A DNA stretch of 31,911 nt, taken from positions 1 to 31,911 of the forward strand of contig MHIS01000015.1 of assembly GCA_001817635.1 (NCBI GenBank), given 5' to 3'. The notes beneath the pieces are model-generated. The model was not told the DNA's origin. It saw nothing but the letters and a program-made list of their open reading frames with translations, and did not search any database. Each line of letters opens with the position of its first letter. Position 1 is the first letter of the stretch. The position numbers and the translations under genes were made by a program. Shown here piece after piece: positions 3,461 through 27,083 of this stretch. Source of the stretch: Candidatus Colwellbacteria bacterium GWA2_46_10 (GTDB lineage: Bacteria > Patescibacteriota > Minisyncoccia > UBA6257 > Colwellbacteraceae).

Positions 3461-3717
3461 TATCTTTGCTCAGCGACAAGGCGGTACCCTATCTATCCCT
3501 CCACAAGTGAGTAAGTTCAGCTGAATGTAAAAAGGGCAACTAGTCCTATTATCGGGGTGACTTCGCCCGTCGTAGAAGAAAGGAGACCTTTGGAGTATTG
3601 ACGGTCAAGGTGGAGGGCCCCTAAGGAGTGGAGAACTCCGCAACCGTATCCTTACCGCATAATTGCCGATTTCCGTATGGTTTGACTAGCTAGTATCAAA
3701 GCGGGAGAATAGGGGTA

Positions 3718-4329
3718 ATGGATAAGTACGCCTTTATAGATGTACGCAATGCGGACGCCACAACTAGCGAGCTGTGCGGATTTTATATTGACTGGGGAAA
3801 ATTACATAAACATCTGATAGAGAGGTGGGGTTGTAAGCAGGCGTTTTATTATACTGGGATTGAGCAGGGAAACGACGAAGAGACAAAAGAATTCGATGCG
3901 TTATCTAGACTCGATAGTAGTGTGGCGAGAACGAAACCAATGCAAATATATAAAATTCCAGACCGCAAGATAAGCGTTGTGTGTAATAAATGTGGCGAAA
4001 GCGTGGTGGATACAATAGATATGGGTTACAAAAGAAAGGGGAATTGCGACGTAGACCTCACTATAGATTTGTTAGAGAATGCTAAGAGTGAAACGGAAAT
4101 GTATCTTTTTACGGGGGACGGTGACTTTGCCCCACTAGTGAGAAAGGCCATAGAGAGGGGCGTATCAAAAGTACATATAGTGTCAAGTGACAAAGTTATT
4201 ATGAGGGCTGGCATACCCAATAGAAGACTCAGCACAAAGATAAAAGCTTTATTTAAAGAGTTTCGGGGGAAAGTTGACTTAGTGGATATAGATTCGCTTC
4301 GAGACCGAATAAAGAAAGATATAATCTAA
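3718..4329 (+). CDS. NYN domain (LabA/DUF88, PIN-like fold) putative RNase with an inserted CxxC hairpin
   Basis: AFIDVRN, KGNCDVDLTID and FTGDGDF carry the acidic PIN/NYN catalytic motifs. The insert VVCNKCGESV lies before the KGN.D motif. Confidence 0.9.
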   Translation: MDKYAFIDVRNADATTSELCGFYIDWGKLHKHLIERWGCKQAFYYTGIEQGNDEETKEFDALSRLDSSVARTKPMQIYKIPDRKISVVCNKCGESVVDTIDMGYKRKGNCDVDLTIDLLENAKSETEMYLFTGDGDFAPLVRKAIERGVSKVHIVSSDKVIMRAGIPNRRLSTKIKALFKEFRGKVDLVDIDSLRDRIKKDII

Positions 4330-21417: not shown

Positions 21418-23439
21418 CTACGCTTCTGCTCCGTCGTTGAGGTAGATCGAAGGAGTAACGAAGTCCCCAAGATTGAGGGCATATCCTAGATCACCATCAC
21501 CCTGCGCCAAAGCGTAGAGGATAACGTCTAAGGATACTGAGTGGAACGCATCCACTAAGTCAACTGCTCCGTCACGAACATCCACTACAATCTGGAACCT
21601 CTCGGTTTCACCATCGAGGACGGTGAATGAACCACCAGCCTCGGTTGCTCCAGTAAGTGTTGTAATGTCCGCCAATAGAGTACCAGTACCGGTAACTCCA
21701 AGGTCGTGTTCTGTACCAACTCCAGCAGCAGTAGATCCTGCGTCATCGGGGTCAGTACCATCGATGAAGATGCTTCCATCCCAAGCGGTCACATCAAACA
21801 CGATAGTGAAAAGACCTGAGTCAGTTCCAGTAGCAGCTGCAGCTGTTGCCACGGCTGTTGGTGTCCCAACTAGAGCGACGTCAAACCCAACATCGCGCAT
21901 CTGAGACGCAGCACCAGTTACAGTACCAGTCTCATCGCCATCAGCTAGGTCTTGTCCAGACTCGTCCTCGGCATCAAAGCTAGCGAGGTCCATCTGGGTT
22001 TCACCAAAGTTGGCGGCGATTGTGTCTCCAAGAGCAAGGTCACCAGTATCGGTGATACCGTACAGGTCTAGCTTTACGAGAAATTCGTAATCTTGACCTG
22101 CCTCAAGTGTAAGACCCATGTCATCGAAGAAGTAAGTCTCGTCTGCCCCTACAGTGGTACAGTTGCTGTTAGCAGCTTGCTCCTCGACACAGTCGTTGGT
22201 CATGTCAACGTTGTCCACCTCATCTCCATCTACGAACAGGGAGATACCGGCAACCATGTCATCAACATTGTCATTGCCAGTAACATCAAAGTTGATTGGG
22301 AGAGAGTCAAGATCCACGTCTGATGTTCCTTCTATCTCTACGTTGAATGAGAGAATAGAAGCATTGTCCGTGTTGTCAGTGGCGTGCACGTTAACAAGGT
22401 GCGCGTCGTTGACAGTATCTTCATCCTCACCCTGAGTAACTTTGAAGAGGGTATCTGCTGCAGTACCAAACGACTCAAATGAGAAAAGTGTTACTGCCAC
22501 AGTTGGATCCTCAGAAACACTTGCTCCATTGGCGTCCACGAAACGAACTGACGTAAAGTCAACGTCCCATGTTTCACCAACATCGTTAGTGTCTATGTTG
22601 CCATCAGCTAAAATAGCTACTGTAAGCTCAACCGTTGATCCGGCTTCTGCCACAGCATCGTCCAATGAGATCGTTGAAGTCCATTCATTATCCTCATTGA
22701 ATTTATCGGCGTCCTTACGTCCAACTTCCTCTCCGTCTAGAAAGACGGCGACTTCATCGGCGTAATCCTCGAAGTCTTGATCAGCGGTACCTTCATCGAA
22801 TACAAGGCGGACTGCCGTGAAATCGAGGTCGGAACCATCCTCTACATCTATCTCAAGACCGGCTACCTCTACTTCATCGTCCTCACCAACCTCTTCGTTG
22901 GAAAGACCGGAAATCAGAGAGTAGCTATCAACTGAACCGTCACCACCAGTTAAACCGGTGCTGCCAGTTCCAGTTCCCGTTCCTGTCCCAGTTCCAGTAC
23001 CAGTACTGCACATCGTGCCGTACTTAGCCTGTGAGATAGGACCGAAGTAACCAACTGCAGGTGATACTCCGTTAGCTGCCTGCCATGCGGCTACAGCTGC
23101 CTGAGTGATCGTACCAAAGAAACCGGTTGCTCCGCCTGAGAAGGTGAAGTGGCCAGTACCCATAAGGTAAGTCTGCAAAGCGGTTACGTCTGCACCAGAC
23201 ATGTCTAGAGTTAGACTTCTGGTCCAAGCGTAGCAAGTAGTGCTAGTACCACCCGATAGTGCCGCTAGCTGGGCGGTTAAGGTAGCAATTTGTGCCTGCA
23301 GGTCGCTGATTGCGTCAGCTCCGGCTGCGGGTACTATGCTCATACCGCCAGCTAGTGAGACTAAAGTGGCAAAAGCAACACTTGCTGTTGCAAATTTCTT
23401 AGTTAATTTACTCACTTTATTTATTTTTGTTTTCGACAA
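21418..23439 (-). CDS. Secreted acidic S-layer-like/surface protein with an N-terminal coiled coil and PG-binding-like domain, a (TG)n linker and beta-sandwich-like domains
   Basis: Signal peptide; ISDLQAQIATLTAQLAAL coiled coil; L.L...G.DV.ALQ.YL...FG.ITQAAV..WQ...G....GYFGP PGBD pattern; TGTGTG linker; very Asp/Thr-rich body. The start is TTG at 23439 or GTG at 23415. Confidence 0.85.
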   Translation of the reverse strand: MSKTKINKVSKLTKKFATASVAFATLVSLAGGMSIVPAAGADAISDLQAQIATLTAQLAALSGGTSTTCYAWTRSLTLDMSGADVTALQTYLMGTGHFTFSGGATGFFGTITQAAVAAWQAANGVSPAVGYFGPISQAKYGTMCSTGTGTGTGTGTGTGSTGLTGGDGSVDSYSLISGLSNEEVGEDDEVEVAGLEIDVEDGSDLDFTAVRLVFDEGTADQDFEDYADEVAVFLDGEEVGRKDADKFNEDNEWTSTISLDDAVAEAGSTVELTVAILADGNIDTNDVGETWDVDFTSVRFVDANGASVSEDPTVAVTLFSFESFGTAADTLFKVTQGEDEDTVNDAHLVNVHATDNTDNASILSFNVEIEGTSDVDLDSLPINFDVTGNDNVDDMVAGISLFVDGDEVDNVDMTNDCVEEQAANSNCTTVGADETYFFDDMGLTLEAGQDYEFLVKLDLYGITDTGDLALGDTIAANFGETQMDLASFDAEDESGQDLADGDETGTVTGAASQMRDVGFDVALVGTPTAVATAAAATGTDSGLFTIVFDVTAWDGSIFIDGTDPDDAGSTAAGVGTEHDLGVTGTGTLLADITTLTGATEAGGSFTVLDGETERFQIVVDVRDGAVDLVDAFHSVSLDVILYALAQGDGDLGYALNLGDFVTPSIYLNDGAEA

Positions 23440-23453
23440 TTTATTTTTGTTTT
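23420..23453. repeat. Two copies of a 14-bp direct repeat at 20-bp period at the S-layer start
   Basis: TTTATTTTTGTTTT at 23420-23433 and 23440-23453. Confidence 0.8.
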
Positions 23454-23833
23454 AGCTTGATGCTAAAACCCGAGATCCTTTCTTCCTGGTTCTGCCATCG
23501 ACCCGTTAGTTTTTAGTTTATTGAAACAACTGGCAATCGCAGGAGGATCTAATGTTTTTGTAGCGGCGGGAATGAATTTGTATTTCCTTCCGCTTGCAAG
23601 CGGGACAGATCTTTCAACCTGCCACGTAATTTTGCCACTACAACCCTCGCACTTTATTAAGTGTGAGGACAAGCCCCATACGGGACTCTGTAAAGGATTC
23701 TAGTATATCAAGCCATAAGCGACAAGACTCTATTTTAAAGCGGGCTGTGGAAAACAACCCTAAATTGAATCCTACGCTTACACTAATTAAAACGGCTAAG
23801 AGAGTGGCTCTGTTACAGGGGAAACCACATTTT

Positions 23834-24502
23834 TTAATATTCGTCAAAGGCATCCTTTCCGCCCTCCTTGGCTTGGGCTAGGAAGAGGACCTCATTTATA
23901 TCCCCCTCGGCTCTCTCTACCCCTCCCTTAAGAGCTCTCACGTACGAGTACGGGCCTCTCTCCCCTATACGCTCCGCAGATCCCCTATCTACCAGGGCAG
24001 ATATATCGTTTCTTAGGGTTCTCTTGCTTACCTCCGGAAAATTCCTTGAGATATCGGCTGGACGGCAACCATTAGGGAATTGCCGTATAAACTCTAGAAT
24101 TTCCGTTTGCCGTTTATCTGGCTTAACGGAAAATTGCCGTTTACTTACCTCTTTTTCCTCTTGCCGTTTAAACGGCAAGGTATTTTTCTGCCGATTAAAG
24201 AGCTTTTCTAGGTTAATTTCTACCTTTTTTTCTGGAAACTCCATAAGTTCCATCATTCCTGCAAGATTACGGAGCTCTCTTATTAAAACCTCACTATTTA
24301 CCCCACTAATCTCCTCTATAGCTTTTCCTAGTTTGATAAGGCGCCTAGCTCTATCAATAGCCGCTTGATCCAGAAACGAGACGATCTCTACCGCCACTGC
24401 CTCCAATTCTTTCCGCAGATAGGAAAATTCAACTTGTGAGGCTACGCGGTAAAGGGCAAAGGCAATATCATGCGCCAATCCGGCAATTTGGTCCCTATCC
24501 AT
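23834..24502 (-). CDS. Helical N-terminal domain plus C-terminal DeoR-like winged HTH protein
   Basis: KRQTEILEFI...ADI...FPEVSKRTLRNDISALVDRG..ERIG wHTH. The ATG at 24502 (MDRDQ) is preferred over 24538. Confidence 0.8.
   Translation of the reverse strand: MDRDQIAGLAHDIAFALYRVASQVEFSYLRKELEAVAVEIVSFLDQAAIDRARRLIKLGKAIEEISGVNSEVLIRELRNLAGMMELMEFPEKKVEINLEKLFNRQKNTLPFKRQEEKEVSKRQFSVKPDKRQTEILEFIRQFPNGCRPADISRNFPEVSKRTLRNDISALVDRGSAERIGERGPYSYVRALKGGVERAEGDINEVLFLAQAKEGGKDAFDEY
24063..24193. repeat. Intragenic array of TTGCCG sites at exact 27-bp period, with inverted copies and a perfect 20-bp palindrome
   Basis: TTGCCG at 24080, 24107, 24134 and 24161, CTGCCG at 24188; CGGCAA at 24063 and 24173; palindrome CTTGCCGTTTAAACGGCAAG at 24160-24179. 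Confidence 0.92.
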
Positions 24503-24507
24503 TGCCG
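24481..24507. promoter_or_regulatory. Inverted repeat (CGGCAAT-N13-ATTGCCG) overlapping the probable wHTH start codon
   Basis: CGGCAAT at 24481-24487 and ATTGCCG at 24501-24507; the CAT (minus-strand ATG) is at 24500-24502. Confidence 0.55.
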
Positions 24508-24639
24508 CAAGATTACCAAAGGGCGGCAGGAAGCACAACTTCCGATATGTGGAAAATCTGTGGAGACATCACACGTCAAACTTGGAATTAACTCTCTGTG
24601 CGGATATTTGAGGCATATGATGCCATCCAGGCCCTCCCA

Positions 24640-24656
24640 GAGACAACAAAACCCCA
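24640..24656 (+). repeat. 17-bp direct repeat, copy 1
   Basis: GAGACAACAAAACCCCA, identical to 25439-25455. Confidence 0.92.
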
Positions 24657-24735
24657 TATCTAGGAGTTCTTGTATCACATAGGCTTGATAGAATCGGGAT
24701 ATGGGCATCATTCCATACTATCAACATGGGGGGGG

Positions 24736-24764
24736 TTGCACTCCCAACACATATTCTGTACTAT
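24736..24764 (+). promoter_or_regulatory. Sigma70-type promoter with extended -10
   Basis: TTGCAC-17 nt-TACTAT, with TG immediately before the -10 box. Confidence 0.75.
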
Positions 24765-24769
24765 CAGTA

Positions 24770-24813
24770 TATAAACGCTCCAGCCAGCCCGAAAGGGTCC
24801 GCTGGAGTTTTTA
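24770..24813 (+). ncRNA. Candidate ~44-nt leader/small RNA ending in a GNRA-capped terminator upstream of the NYN gene
   Basis: CTCCAGC-cag-CCC-GAAA-GGG-tcc-GCTGGAG-TTTTTT starts 13 nt after the -10 box and ends 33 nt before the NYN ATG. The 5' end is estimated from the promoter position. Confidence 0.5.
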
Positions 24814-24846
24814 TTTTCTTGCAAAAGTTATATAAAGAGTTCGCAT

Positions 24847-25440
24847 ATGAGGAATATCCTACTAGTCGACGGCGAGAATTTTAAGAAAAAGATAGAGTCT
24901 GTTTTTGAGGAAGAGGGGGAGGGAGAACCAGATTGGTCATCCTATAATTTTAGAGGATTGATCGACCACGTTCTTAGCGGTATTAATTTGGGTGATAGAG
25001 TCTTTTACATAGCCAGGATAAAGGAACATGAAGAGACTAAAGAAAAATCCCGAGAGCTGATTGAAAAACAGAGAGGGCTAAAAGCCAATTTAATTAATAG
25101 CGGCTTTACTGTAGTGTCTGCGGGCAACGTCAAGGGGTGGCCCTATGGGAAGAAAGGCAGATTGATTTTCAAGGAGAAGGGCGTAGATGTTCGAATAGCA
25201 GTGGATATGATAGTGAGAGCCTGTATAGATGGAGACATAGACACTATTATTTTGGGCAGCTCCGATTCCGACTTACAGCCAGCCGTATCGGAGTTAAATA
25301 AAAGAAGCGTTAGGTCTATATACCTTGGTTTCGAGAGTAACCCGAATAAGGGATTAACTTACACAATGGGCAAGACAATCCTAATTAGGAATAGAGAAGT
25401 CATTGAATTTAAGAGCCAAAACCCCCATAAGTTGTTGTGA
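24847..25440 (+). CDS. NYN domain (LabA/DUF88) putative RNase
   Basis: LVDGEN, EKGVDVRIAVD and GSSDSDLQPAV motifs. Confidence 0.93.
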   Translation: MRNILLVDGENFKKKIESVFEEEGEGEPDWSSYNFRGLIDHVLSGINLGDRVFYIARIKEHEETKEKSRELIEKQRGLKANLINSGFTVVSAGNVKGWPYGKKGRLIFKEKGVDVRIAVDMIVRACIDGDIDTIILGSSDSDLQPAVSELNKRSVRSIYLGFESNPNKGLTYTMGKTILIRNREVIEFKSQNPHKLL

Positions 25441-25455
25441 GACAACAAAACCCCA
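25439..25455 (+). repeat. 17-bp direct repeat, copy 2, part of a minus-strand terminator-like hairpin after gpmI
   Basis: GAGACAACAAAACCCCA; the minus strand reads GCCCC-ATAATCT-GGGGT-TTTGTT. Confidence 0.9.
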
Positions 25456-25508
25456 GATTATGGGGCGGTAGTACTACAATCGAGAAAGACTACCTAAAGA
25501 TCACCGCA

Positions 25509-27083
25509 TTACCTCAGAAGCTGAAGGAGGCTGATTCCCGTCATATCTTCTGGTTTGGGAATCCCCATAAGCTCCAGGATGGTTGGGGCAATATCTGAAA
25601 GTACACCCACGTTGAGCTTCTCTATTTCCACAGCCTGAGCTTCACTCTTTTGCCTCTCGTATCCTGGGGCGACTATGTATATAGGAACGGGGCTTATATT
25701 ATCCCCCAAATCCCTAGATCCGGTTCTCAAGTTCATCATCACTTCGGCATTCCCGTGGGTTGAGGTGATAACTAAGGTTGATCCGGAGGCGAGGACGGCC
25801 TTAGCTATCAACCCTACCTGTTCATCTGCAGCCCTAACCGCTTTAATGGTTGCGTCAAAATTCCCTGTGTGGGCTACTATGTCAGCGTTTGCGAAATCTG
25901 CCAGGATAAAATCATATATCCCCTCATTCAAAGCAGAGAGTATCCTCTCTGTTGCCTCCTTCACTCTCATTTCTGGATGTTCATCTACCTTTGCTTCCTC
26001 TCTTGATGGAATAACTACCCTGTATTCATTGGCGAAGGCTTTGTTGGTCATCCCATTAAAGAGGGTTGTTACATACGCATACTTTTGGGTTTCCGCCACC
26101 CGTAACTGTACCTTGCCTGCGTCAGCGAGAACTTTACCCAAGGGGTTAACTATCCCCTCCTGTGGGAAAGCCGCCGGGATGCCTAGGGTTTTTTCGTATT
26201 CAATCAACGAAAGAAGACTTAAGTCCTCTGGAATAGCGTGTTTTTTAACCTCTCTTTCTCCTAATTCATAGTGGGGCGTGCCTCCGTACGCGGGATCAAC
26301 AAACATCCTGGCCAACTGCCTTTGAGAGTCCTCGCTAAAGTTGAAAAAGATCACCCCGTCTCCCCCCTTAACCGCCAGATCCTTATCAAAAAGGGTTGGG
26401 ACTATAAATTCATCCGTTACACCGGAGGTATAAAGTTCTTTCACAAATTCACTTCTATCTTCTACCCCGTTAACTGGGGCCTTTATGCCTGCGATGGCCT
26501 CGTACGCCCTCAACGTCTTATCCAAATGAAGATCTATATCCATCGCATAGTGCCTTCCAGAAATCGATCCGATCCTCTCTTGAGGCAAATGGGCCATTAG
26601 CCTAGATGCGCTCCCCTGCGCGCTGTCTCTTCCGTCCCCAAAAAGATGCAAAGCAAAGGGCGTTCCCTCATCTCCCGCCATTTTCATCAAGGCCTCCAAA
26701 TGCTCCAGGGCGGAAACGCTCGTCCCCTCACCGATCAATCCCAGGAAGTTTACCTTTCCTCCTTTTTCTTTGGCGCCCCTTATCACCCGGAGAAGCTCTT
26801 CATTTTCAAAAAAACTTCCGTCCTGTATGGTTAGGCTGATGCGGAGGTAATCCTGGTAGAGAACTTTCCCGGCGCCCATAGTTAAATACCCAACCTCAGG
26901 GTTGCCCTCTTCATTCCAAGGGAGTCCGACCGCAATGCCTGAGGCTTGGAGGGTCCCTGCGGGGTATGTAAGCCGAATCTGATTGATGTTTTTGGGCTCC
27001 GCCTGGTATATGGGGTTAGAGGCATCCTTCCTGCCTACCCCCCAACCACTCAAGATCAAAAGCACTACCGTGCGTTTTGCCAT
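25509..27083 (-). CDS. gpmI: 2,3-bisphosphoglycerate-independent phosphoglycerate mutase homolog with a degenerate active site
   Basis: Full-length iPGM architecture (DGRD, AETQKYAYVT, ANADIVAH, HGNAE, D(I)APTIL), but with LSGWG for LDGWG, GNPEVGY for GNSEVGH and STHGN for ADHGN. Confidence 0.88.
   Translation of the reverse strand: MAKRTVVLLILSGWGVGRKDASNPIYQAEPKNINQIRLTYPAGTLQASGIAVGLPWNEEGNPEVGYLTMGAGKVLYQDYLRISLTIQDGSFFENEELLRVIRGAKEKGGKVNFLGLIGEGTSVSALEHLEALMKMAGDEGTPFALHLFGDGRDSAQGSASRLMAHLPQERIGSISGRHYAMDIDLHLDKTLRAYEAIAGIKAPVNGVEDRSEFVKELYTSGVTDEFIVPTLFDKDLAVKGGDGVIFFNFSEDSQRQLARMFVDPAYGGTPHYELGEREVKKHAIPEDLSLLSLIEYEKTLGIPAAFPQEGIVNPLGKVLADAGKVQLRVAETQKYAYVTTLFNGMTNKAFANEYRVVIPSREEAKVDEHPEMRVKEATERILSALNEGIYDFILADFANADIVAHTGNFDATIKAVRAADEQVGLIAKAVLASGSTLVITSTHGNAEVMMNLRTGSRDLGDNISPVPIYIVAPGYERQKSEAQAVEIEKLNVGVLSDIAPTILELMGIPKPEDMTGISLLQLLR

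Follow-up and report, generated by a model that had tools for sequence, protein, structure and literature searches.

The closest described counterparts of the locus considered here are the type III toxin-antitoxin systems (ToxIN, AbiQ/antiQ, CptIN and TenpIN), in which a nuclease gene is preceded, on its own strand, by an RNA gene, and an intrinsic terminator separates the two. To our knowledge, tandem repeats are found in every known type III antitoxin. The present locus consists of a short hairpin RNA and a gene for an NYN-domain nuclease, here named NYN-2, and occupies positions 24736-25440 of a 31,911-nucleotide (nt) stretch of DNA from Candidatus Colwellbacteria bacterium GWA2_46_10 (assembly GCA_001817635.1, contig MHIS01000015.1, positions 1 to 31,911), the whole of which is called the window below. 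The genome of this member of the Patescibacteria measures 507 kb in 21 contigs and contains seven NYN-domain genes. A first-pass annotation of the window had described the promoter, hairpin RNA, terminator and NYN nuclease found at these positions as a type III toxin-antitoxin-like architecture.

Among NYN proteins, the NYN.COG1432 cluster has been listed as of unknown function, and NYN proteins are absent from the listed toxins of toxin-antitoxin systems (PMC5499597). A CRISPR-associated bacterial NYN protein has been described as a sequence-nonspecific, Mn-dependent single-strand ribonuclease (RNase) (10.1101/2024.04.08.588522), an activity which makes it plausible that uncontrolled NYN activity would be harmful. 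A literature search for NYN in combination with Patescibacteria, the candidate phyla radiation or type III toxin-antitoxin systems returned nothing relevant.

Comparison of the locus with its orthologues points to a module of RNA and nuclease. The hairpin would serve to restrain or otherwise regulate NYN-2, and the two together would be maintained and disseminated as a cassette of selfish or defensive character. This is a reading to which we give an even chance. It draws on a strictly conserved RNA unit upstream of NYN-2, on the absence of intact NYN-2 genes without this unit among the orthologues examined, and on the patchy distribution of the pair.

Organisation of the NYN-2 locus

The following features were identified at the locus in the window.

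24718-24726, plus strand: DnaA-box-like motif CTATCAACA, degenerate, 9 nt upstream of the -35 element
24736-24764, plus strand: small-RNA promoter P1, with TTGCAC (24736-24741), a 17-nt spacer and TACTAT (24759-24764)
24771-24817, plus strand: predicted small RNA of ~42-47 nt, its ends inferred from sequence
24829-24836, plus strand: weak -10-like sequence TATATAAA, at the position of a second promoter (P2) in orthologues; the TG is missing in the window copy
24847-25440, plus strand: NYN-2 gene, 197 amino acids, PF01936; ATG at 24847, stop at 25440; acidic DGEN and SSDSD motifs conserved

Both sequence and predicted fold bear out the annotated layout, in which a GNRA-capped hairpin begins 13 nt past the -10 element of P1 and is followed by the ATG of NYN-2. 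Several of its details are to be corrected. The promoter had been given as a near-consensus extended -10; in the window, the -35 element of P1 matches the consensus at three of six positions, and the TG abuts the -10 element directly, so that P1 is not a canonical extended -10 promoter here, and a consensus promoter scan omitted it. It is in the orthologues that a near-consensus promoter of the form TTGAC(T/A)-17-TAnnnT occurs instead. The outer stem of the hairpin pairs CTCCAGC (24778-24784) with GCTGGAG (24801-24807), with an additional G24777.U24808 pair, while the inner stem consists of CCC/GGG and carries a GAAA loop at 24791-24794. In place of the annotated 3x3 internal loop there is a stack of conserved non-Watson-Crick rungs, and the tract reported as U6 reads U5AU4 (T5AT4 in the DNA, 24808-24817). 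Hairpin and U5AU4 tract together have the form of an intrinsic terminator, situated 30 nt upstream of the NYN-2 ATG. The fold of 24736-24846 has a predicted energy of -30.5 kcal/mol (z = -4.4), which was equalled by none of 200 shuffled sequences. The 5' tail of the RNA reads AUAAACG in the window and AUACACG in most orthologues. In agreement with the annotation, no tandem repeat array is present, Tandem Repeats Finder having returned nothing over 24500-25550 and a single hairpin being found in all orthologues.

A search of Rfam 15 gave no match at the gathering threshold in the window and none at the hairpin up to E = 10 (searched over 23400-25600); the RNA is a family that matches no described Rfam family. 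Other identities for the site were considered and rejected: no tRNA or tmRNA was found there, and neither of the small open reading frames (ORFs; 24701-24835 and 24726-24884) is conserved, the covariation being RNA-like.

The NYN-2 protein matches the Pfam NYN family (PF01936) with E = 1.3e-12 and 48.8 bits, against a cut-off of 24.2 bits. Residues D8, E10, D114, D128, D140 and D142 are invariant in 25 sequences, and D120 is nearly so. An AlphaFold2 model of the protein (predicted local distance difference test score, 86.6) found its best structural match in the LabA-like protein 2qip (E = 1.6e-6), followed by the NYN domain of MARF1 and then by T5 FEN and ExoIX. From its NYN fold and acidic site, as seen in alignment and model, NYN-2 is predicted to be a catalytically intact nuclease. 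More than 2000 relatives were identified at E <= 1e-5, most of the best 120 listed having 55-60% identity, and among the matches listed all those with a source name are from Patescibacteria. The PADLOC defence library gave weak matches only, to HEC-09 (E = 1.7e-7) and to a generic NYN model. HEC-09 is an NYN defence candidate which gave no protection against any phage tested (10.1101/2024.01.29.577857).

Conservation of the hairpin RNA

Using the NYN-2 protein, 80 genomic loci were collected. A set of 81 loci was obtained by leaving out one that lay at a contig end and adding G044 and the window, and 17 genes from a 401-genome class sample brought the number of orthologues to 98; further homologues (~230 genomic and more than 2000 metagenomic) stand outside these counts. 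The 79 distinct RNA copies were aligned (alignment A2), and a covariance model, R1, was used for genome scans.

Directly upstream of NYN-2 and on the same strand, all 81 loci with enough upstream sequence possess one and the same unit, consisting of TTGAC(T/A), 17 nt, TAnnnT, ~7 nt, a tail of ATACACG or ATAAACG, the hairpin and a T-tract. The promoter form TTGAC(T/A)-17-TAnnnT is found in 78 of 79 loci, and the RNA follows the -35 element at a constant 32-33 nt. In alignment A2, 91.6% of cells are paired, with six of the eleven pairs varying on both sides (32 cells), a result matched by none of 500 shuffles. Pairing drops sharply once the 3' partners are shifted by one column or more. Including the genes of the class sample, the conserved and covarying hairpin is present in all 98 orthologues.

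The predicted RNA forms a helix of 12 rungs (7 + 5) from which an unpaired 5' tail and a U-rich 3' tail extend. Within the non-Watson-Crick stack, the first rung is Y.C (C.C or U.C) in 79 of 79 copies, the second is A.C in 71 copies, the other 8 having the isosteric G.U, and the third is G.U, G-C or A-U. The loop is of the GNRA type in 69 of these copies, and the 5' tail reads AUACACG in 53. Mean nucleotide identity amounts to 86% in the RNA core versus 65% in the NYN-2 coding sequence. Taken together, the conservation of rungs, loop, tail and overall sequence exceeds what a plain terminator would need.

The dimensions of the hairpin resemble those of a pre-tRNA acceptor/T-arm minihelix, a likeness which may be coincidence or may reflect mimicry of a target RNA.

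Association of the RNA with NYN-2

In the window genome, R1 has one match (24769-24815, E = 5e-11) and none beside the other six NYN genes. Among 53 genomes of the family, strong matches are confined to the two with a true NYN-2 orthologue, and a weak match was obtained in G049 (E = 0.0046). Seven genomes have as many copies of the RNA as of NYN-2, one or two of each. In the class sample, which was evenly drawn, 16 of 401 genomes carry NYN-2; the hairpin is present at 17 of 17 NYN-2 family genes (two of them partial or decayed) and at none of 12 loci of other NYN families. No intact NYN-2 lacking the RNA unit was found among the 98 orthologues examined.

The association was also seen when metagenome contigs were searched with the hairpin sequence alone: NYN-2 follows on the same strand in 65 of the 77 matches that have enough downstream sequence. 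The other 12 copies are orphans, being either remnants with no ORF or a truncated NYN gene, or units standing ahead of other small genes. Judged by reading of their sequences, ORFs of such orphan units include two that are DUF3800-like, one HicB-like, one RHH-like and one TlyA-like. The presence of orphan units before other ORFs suggests that the cargo behind the RNA unit may be exchanged or lost. A nuclease that never occurs without the RNA, and an RNA that sometimes occurs without the nuclease, form the asymmetry which would be expected if the RNA protects against the nuclease. Intact P1-hairpin units without NYN-2 are located at L133:129-800, L143:4223-4894 (minus strand), L130:1970-2299, L178:10729-11046 and L167:1880-2617.

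An antisense action of the RNA tail on the NYN-2 mRNA was considered and rejected, as the predicted duplex (-8.5 kcal/mol) is no stronger than that of a reversed-tail control (-8.7 kcal/mol). An 8-mer complementary to the tail is found at NYN-2 codons ~157-159 in 7-9 loci; the window copy matches it at three of eight positions.

Expression of NYN-2

An extended -10 element (TGnTAnnnT) is found after the terminator in 56 of 81 loci. In 52 of the 81 its end is separated from the start codon by 6-12 nt, and in 50 of these by 6-10 nt; none of the 52 loci has a Shine-Dalgarno sequence. Such spacing and the missing Shine-Dalgarno sequence argue for a leaderless NYN-2 mRNA starting from this promoter, P2, and NYN-2 is probably produced in this way and not by read-through of the terminator. 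A different situation is seen in 8-10 loci, where the ATG lies 9-16 nt past the stem and the T-tract is broken: with the ATG so near to the stem there is no room for P2, and NYN-2 must be read through the hairpin. The terminator had been proposed to keep the RNA in excess over the toxin mRNA, a role that could be played in a minority of copies at best, given P2 in 52 of 81 loci.

The predicted end of the P1 transcript lies ~15 nt upstream of the -10 element of P2, and the two promoters are ~55 nt apart. Interference is to be expected between promoters this close, and from their positions transcriptional interference between P1 and P2 appears likely.

Three loci (L025, L036 and L077) represent an NYN-2 subgroup with an N-terminal extension of ~17-25 residues that carries a CxxC motif. 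These loci have the usual hairpin and extended -10 spacing, and the extension falls between P2 and the canonical start.

Mobility and distribution of the cassette

Three further features, to which no strand is assigned, concern the boundaries of the cassette in the window.

24640-24659: flanking direct repeat, left copy, with imperfect similarity continuing to ~24700
25439-25458: flanking direct repeat, right copy, beginning in the NYN-2 stop codon and overlapping the terminator of the iPGM-like gene on the minus strand
24565-25507: segment missing at the same site in two congeners, where the iPGM-like and wHTH genes abut

NYN-2 is present in 2 of 53 genomes of the family and in ~4% of class genomes, and is missing from four congeners. 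Two congeners in which the iPGM-like and wHTH genes abut, with a gap of 0 nt in G025 and of 28 nt in G024, identify 24565-25507 as an insertion. Contigs aligned to the window represent related variants, apart from one which joins 24564 to 25672 and probably comes from a relative without the insertion. The direct repeat flanking the window copy is 17-20 nt long (95% identity over 20 nt, spacing 799 nt) and runs on imperfectly for ~40 nt more. Exact flanking direct repeats of 14-48 nt, longer with mismatches, were found in at least 14 loci, against mostly 10 nt or less in a reverse-complement control. Each of these repeats is a different host sequence, taken from the 5' or 3' end of a gene or from a terminator. 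The left repeat precedes the hairpin by ~100-145 nt, and the right repeat follows the NYN-2 stop at 0-46 nt. As judged from the sequences, the NYN-2/RNA pair is a mobile insertion of ~0.8 kb with long, locus-specific target duplications.

Across 80 loci no conserved neighbour genes were found. The cassette has no transposase, NYN-2 being its only ORF; no terminal inverted repeats were found, and its right end is not conserved. Carriage by phages or other viruses was not indicated, with no protein match in 50,697 phage records or in viral contigs and no hairpin pattern in the viral contigs.

The motif TATCC[AC]CA occurs within 35 nt upstream of the P1 -35 element in 28 of 79 loci. This corresponds to a density of 11.8 per kb versus a background of 0.086 per kb, an enrichment of ~137-fold. 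Elsewhere in the window genome this motif is rarely followed by a promoter, one of the few such places being an origin-like cluster of boxes. At G000:C13 ~22250-22338, at least three TTATCCACA/TGTGGATAA boxes are located in ~85 nt, and from this arrangement the cluster is probably a replication origin or the dnaA promoter region.

The flanking repeat of the NYN-2 cassette sits within a repeated non-coding element of ~135 nt at 24565-24705. Copies of this element, 80-82% identical, were identified at G000:C7:16535-16664 (minus strand), at G000:C18:20773-20905 (a copy interrupted by stop codons) and in congener G023. On the minus strand the element consists of a CCCC-N7-GGGG hairpin and TTTTGT followed by ~90 conserved nt. 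It precedes unrelated genes, namely the wHTH gene in the window, a LAGLIDADG-like ORF on C7 and the upstream region of infC on C18, and has no match in Rfam.

RNA units associated with other NYN genes

The first-pass annotation had pointed to a similar unit beside NYN-1 (3718-4329), a gene whose product shows no detectable similarity to NYN-2 beyond the shared domain. A promoter-hairpin-U6 unit does exist at that gene, but its place is downstream of NYN-1 on the other strand, and its sequence is not related to that of the NYN-2 unit.

4427-4340, minus strand: convergent unit at the NYN-1 3' end, with box, promoter, hairpin and T6

This unit has a perfect TTATCCACA at 4427-4419, a TTGACT-17-TACTAT promoter at 4414-4386 and a 12-bp hairpin at 4372-4346, and its T6 ends near the NYN-1 stop. 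The convergent arrangement is kept in all five orthologues collected. A unit of the NYN-2 type upstream of NYN-1 was looked for and rejected, the region being unstructured (z = 0.23) and giving no R1 match. No flanking repeat of 9 nt or more was found around the NYN-1 cassette in the ranges tried. NYN-1 itself looks leaderless, with a TTGACT-17-GAGAAT promoter (3682-3720) ending 7 nt before the ATG.

Five of the seven NYN genes have a unit of promoter, hairpin and T-run no more than 700 nt away; ~0.8 would be expected near the NYN genes on the basis of 30 such units genome-wide (both strands, simple scan). The idea of a recurring design thus holds insofar as units accompany five of seven NYN genes, and has to be modified in that the form found in the other families is convergent. 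As the units of those families are convergent at the 3' end, the common denominator would be an RNA product rather than a 5' attenuator. Further units beside NYN paralogues were located at G000:C13:76328 (plus strand), G000:C21:21877 (minus strand) and G000:C13:74064 (plus strand). The RNA of the last of these is nearly the same as that of the NYN-1 unit, and it lies beside a truncated NYN gene and an integrase ORF resembling those of insertion sequences.

Proposed function and alternative explanations

In the RNA-nuclease module proposed here, a small RNA of ~45 nt would be transcribed from P1, probably constitutively and often behind a DnaA-box-like motif, and would be ended by its own stem and U-tract. 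NYN-2 would mostly be made as a leaderless mRNA from P2, which adjoins the terminator, and by read-through where P2 has no room. The RNA would act as a specific partner that holds NYN-2 in check, whether by binding and inhibiting it in the manner of a type III antitoxin or by serving as its decoy or substrate, while P1 transcription ending on P2 would probably also damp NYN-2 expression. The pair would persist as an addiction or defence module. Several observations weigh against this scheme. The NYN-2 unit contains no tandem repeat array, and the presence of P2 in most copies makes the classic terminator-set ratio of RNA to toxin inapplicable. In the 8-10 loci without room for P2, the hairpin forms the 5' leader of the NYN-2 mRNA. 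The base-pair pattern by itself leaves the strand of the RNA undecided, and it is only through the promoter, the GNRA loop and the U-tract that the plus strand becomes the likelier one. Finally, the HEC-09 candidate to which NYN-2 is weakly matched failed in phage tests.

Some of the same observations would fit a hairpin that acts in cis only, as a terminator or insulator shielding the nuclease gene from outside and P1 transcription, and perhaps also as an operator-like RNA or DNA site by which NYN would restrict its own expression. The hairpin is always on the same strand as NYN-2 and lies 9-52 nt from the ATG in 77 of 81 loci, its stem and U-tract resemble an intrinsic terminator, it must belong to the NYN mRNA leader in 8-10 loci, and the ~55 nt between P1 and P2 would lead one to expect interference. 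An insulator, however, needs no strong dedicated promoter and no invariant non-Watson-Crick rungs, GNRA loop or 5' tail; the units of other NYN families, being convergent at the 3' end, cannot be leaders, and orphan units persist without NYN. We consider a purely cis-acting hairpin possible but unlikely. Still less likely is a housekeeping role in RNA processing, with the small RNA as a substrate or cofactor of the nuclease, for instance in the form of a minihelix like the acceptor/T-arm of pre-tRNA. The large family (more than 2000 members), the strong purifying selection on both protein and RNA, and a 12-rung helix with 5' tail that may be likened to tRNA would agree with such a role. A pair found in only ~4% of class genomes, missing from four congeners, placed at differing sites with insertion scars and known from decayed copies makes it very improbable.

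The insertion scars themselves allow another explanation, in which the hairpin (as RNA or single-stranded DNA) and the NYN protein would be the mobility machinery of the cassette, the hairpin/DnaA-box end serving as the recognised end or as a cofactor and the nuclease cutting with a wide stagger that gives rise to long target duplications. In a combined version, hairpin RNA and NYN-2 would constitute a minimal autonomous mobile element of a new kind, without transposase or integrase, its nuclease making staggered breaks with the RNA or DnaA-box end as cofactor and with target duplications of 15 to ~100 bp; the RNA would also restrain the nuclease, and the element would be at once self-mobilising and addictive. 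The cassette has two genes only, yet its copies stand at unrelated sites, bordered by duplications that are particular to each locus and vary in length. Structure-specific DNA nucleases are known among the PIN-like folds; two of them, T5 FEN and ExoIX, are fold matches of NYN-2, and a DnaA-box-like motif marks the conserved left part. A DnaA box is also contained in the outside end of IS50/Tn5. Terminal inverted repeats, a conserved right end and an evident target motif are nevertheless lacking, copy number is limited to one or two per genome, the NYN proteins studied so far are RNases, and the duplications could stem from host recombination of imported DNA. Mobility machinery is for these reasons an improbable explanation, and the combined version appears doubtful to the same degree.

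Should the RNA restrain the nuclease as proposed, the NYN/PIN-like superfamily would gain in NYN-2 its first toxin under RNA control, and the RNA-antitoxin architecture would be new, consisting of a single hairpin that doubles as terminator and has no repeat array. It would also provide a function for part of the very large LabA-like NYN cluster. The RNA family would offer distinct features for recognition in the Y.C and A.C rungs, the GNRA loop and the 5' tail. A one-protein cassette with long, variable duplications in many lineages of Patescibacteria raises the question of how small modules move in genomes of 0.5-1 Mb, and the DnaA-box-like motif before RNA promoters hints at a coupling to the replication cycle.

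Comparison with known systems

Long target duplications of variable length are made by the IS1634/IS1549 group of the IS4 family. The NYN-2 cassette resembles members of this group in having one protein gene and in occupying unrelated sites flanked by variable host duplications tens of bases long, but differs from them in possessing neither a DDE transposase nor inverted repeats nor conserved ends, and in its one or two copies per genome. The convergent, type I-like units of the other NYN genes share with the NYN-2 unit the succession of DnaA-box-like motif, TTGACT promoter, tail, hairpin and U-tract. They differ in lying downstream of NYN, in having a shared bidirectional terminator and in their unrelated sequences, whereas the NYN-2 RNA is encoded in tandem upstream and has no antisense complementarity to its own mRNA. 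As in the type II system VapBC, a small metal-dependent PIN-like nuclease with a patchy, accessory distribution is encoded. Unlike VapBC, the NYN-2 locus has no gene for a protein antitoxin and no conserved neighbours, and the nuclease belongs to NYN.COG1432 and not to the VapC group.

Against the type III systems, the antitoxin of the latter is made of tandem repeats of 34-36 nt where a single hairpin is found here, and in the NYN-2 unit it is the terminator hairpin itself that is the conserved RNA. In type III systems the repeats are cut to RNAs of unit length, a single upstream promoter serves RNA and toxin alike, and the toxin, which inhibits growth when alone, is held inactive in a complex with the RNA that it binds and cuts. 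The fold of NYN-2 is NYN/PIN-like and differs from that of ToxN, AbiQ, CptN and TenpN, and in most copies the gene has an apparent second promoter of its own, from which a leaderless mRNA would start. Of the traits of type III systems, the small RNA, the terminator, the nuclease and the mobility are shared; the repeats and the toxin fold are not, and a single shared promoter is improbable for most copies. Lacking a repeat array, having another toxin fold and with two predicted promoters in most copies, the module is not a member of the type III class. What it has in common with ToxIN, AbiQ/antiQ, CptIN and TenpIN is a same-strand RNA gene upstream of the nuclease gene, an intrinsic terminator ahead of the latter, a compact, accessory and horizontally mobile form, and a nuclease gene never found without its RNA gene. 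By analogy, the best-supported placing of the NYN-2 module would be that of a system which is type III toxin-antitoxin-like in its working while standing outside that type.

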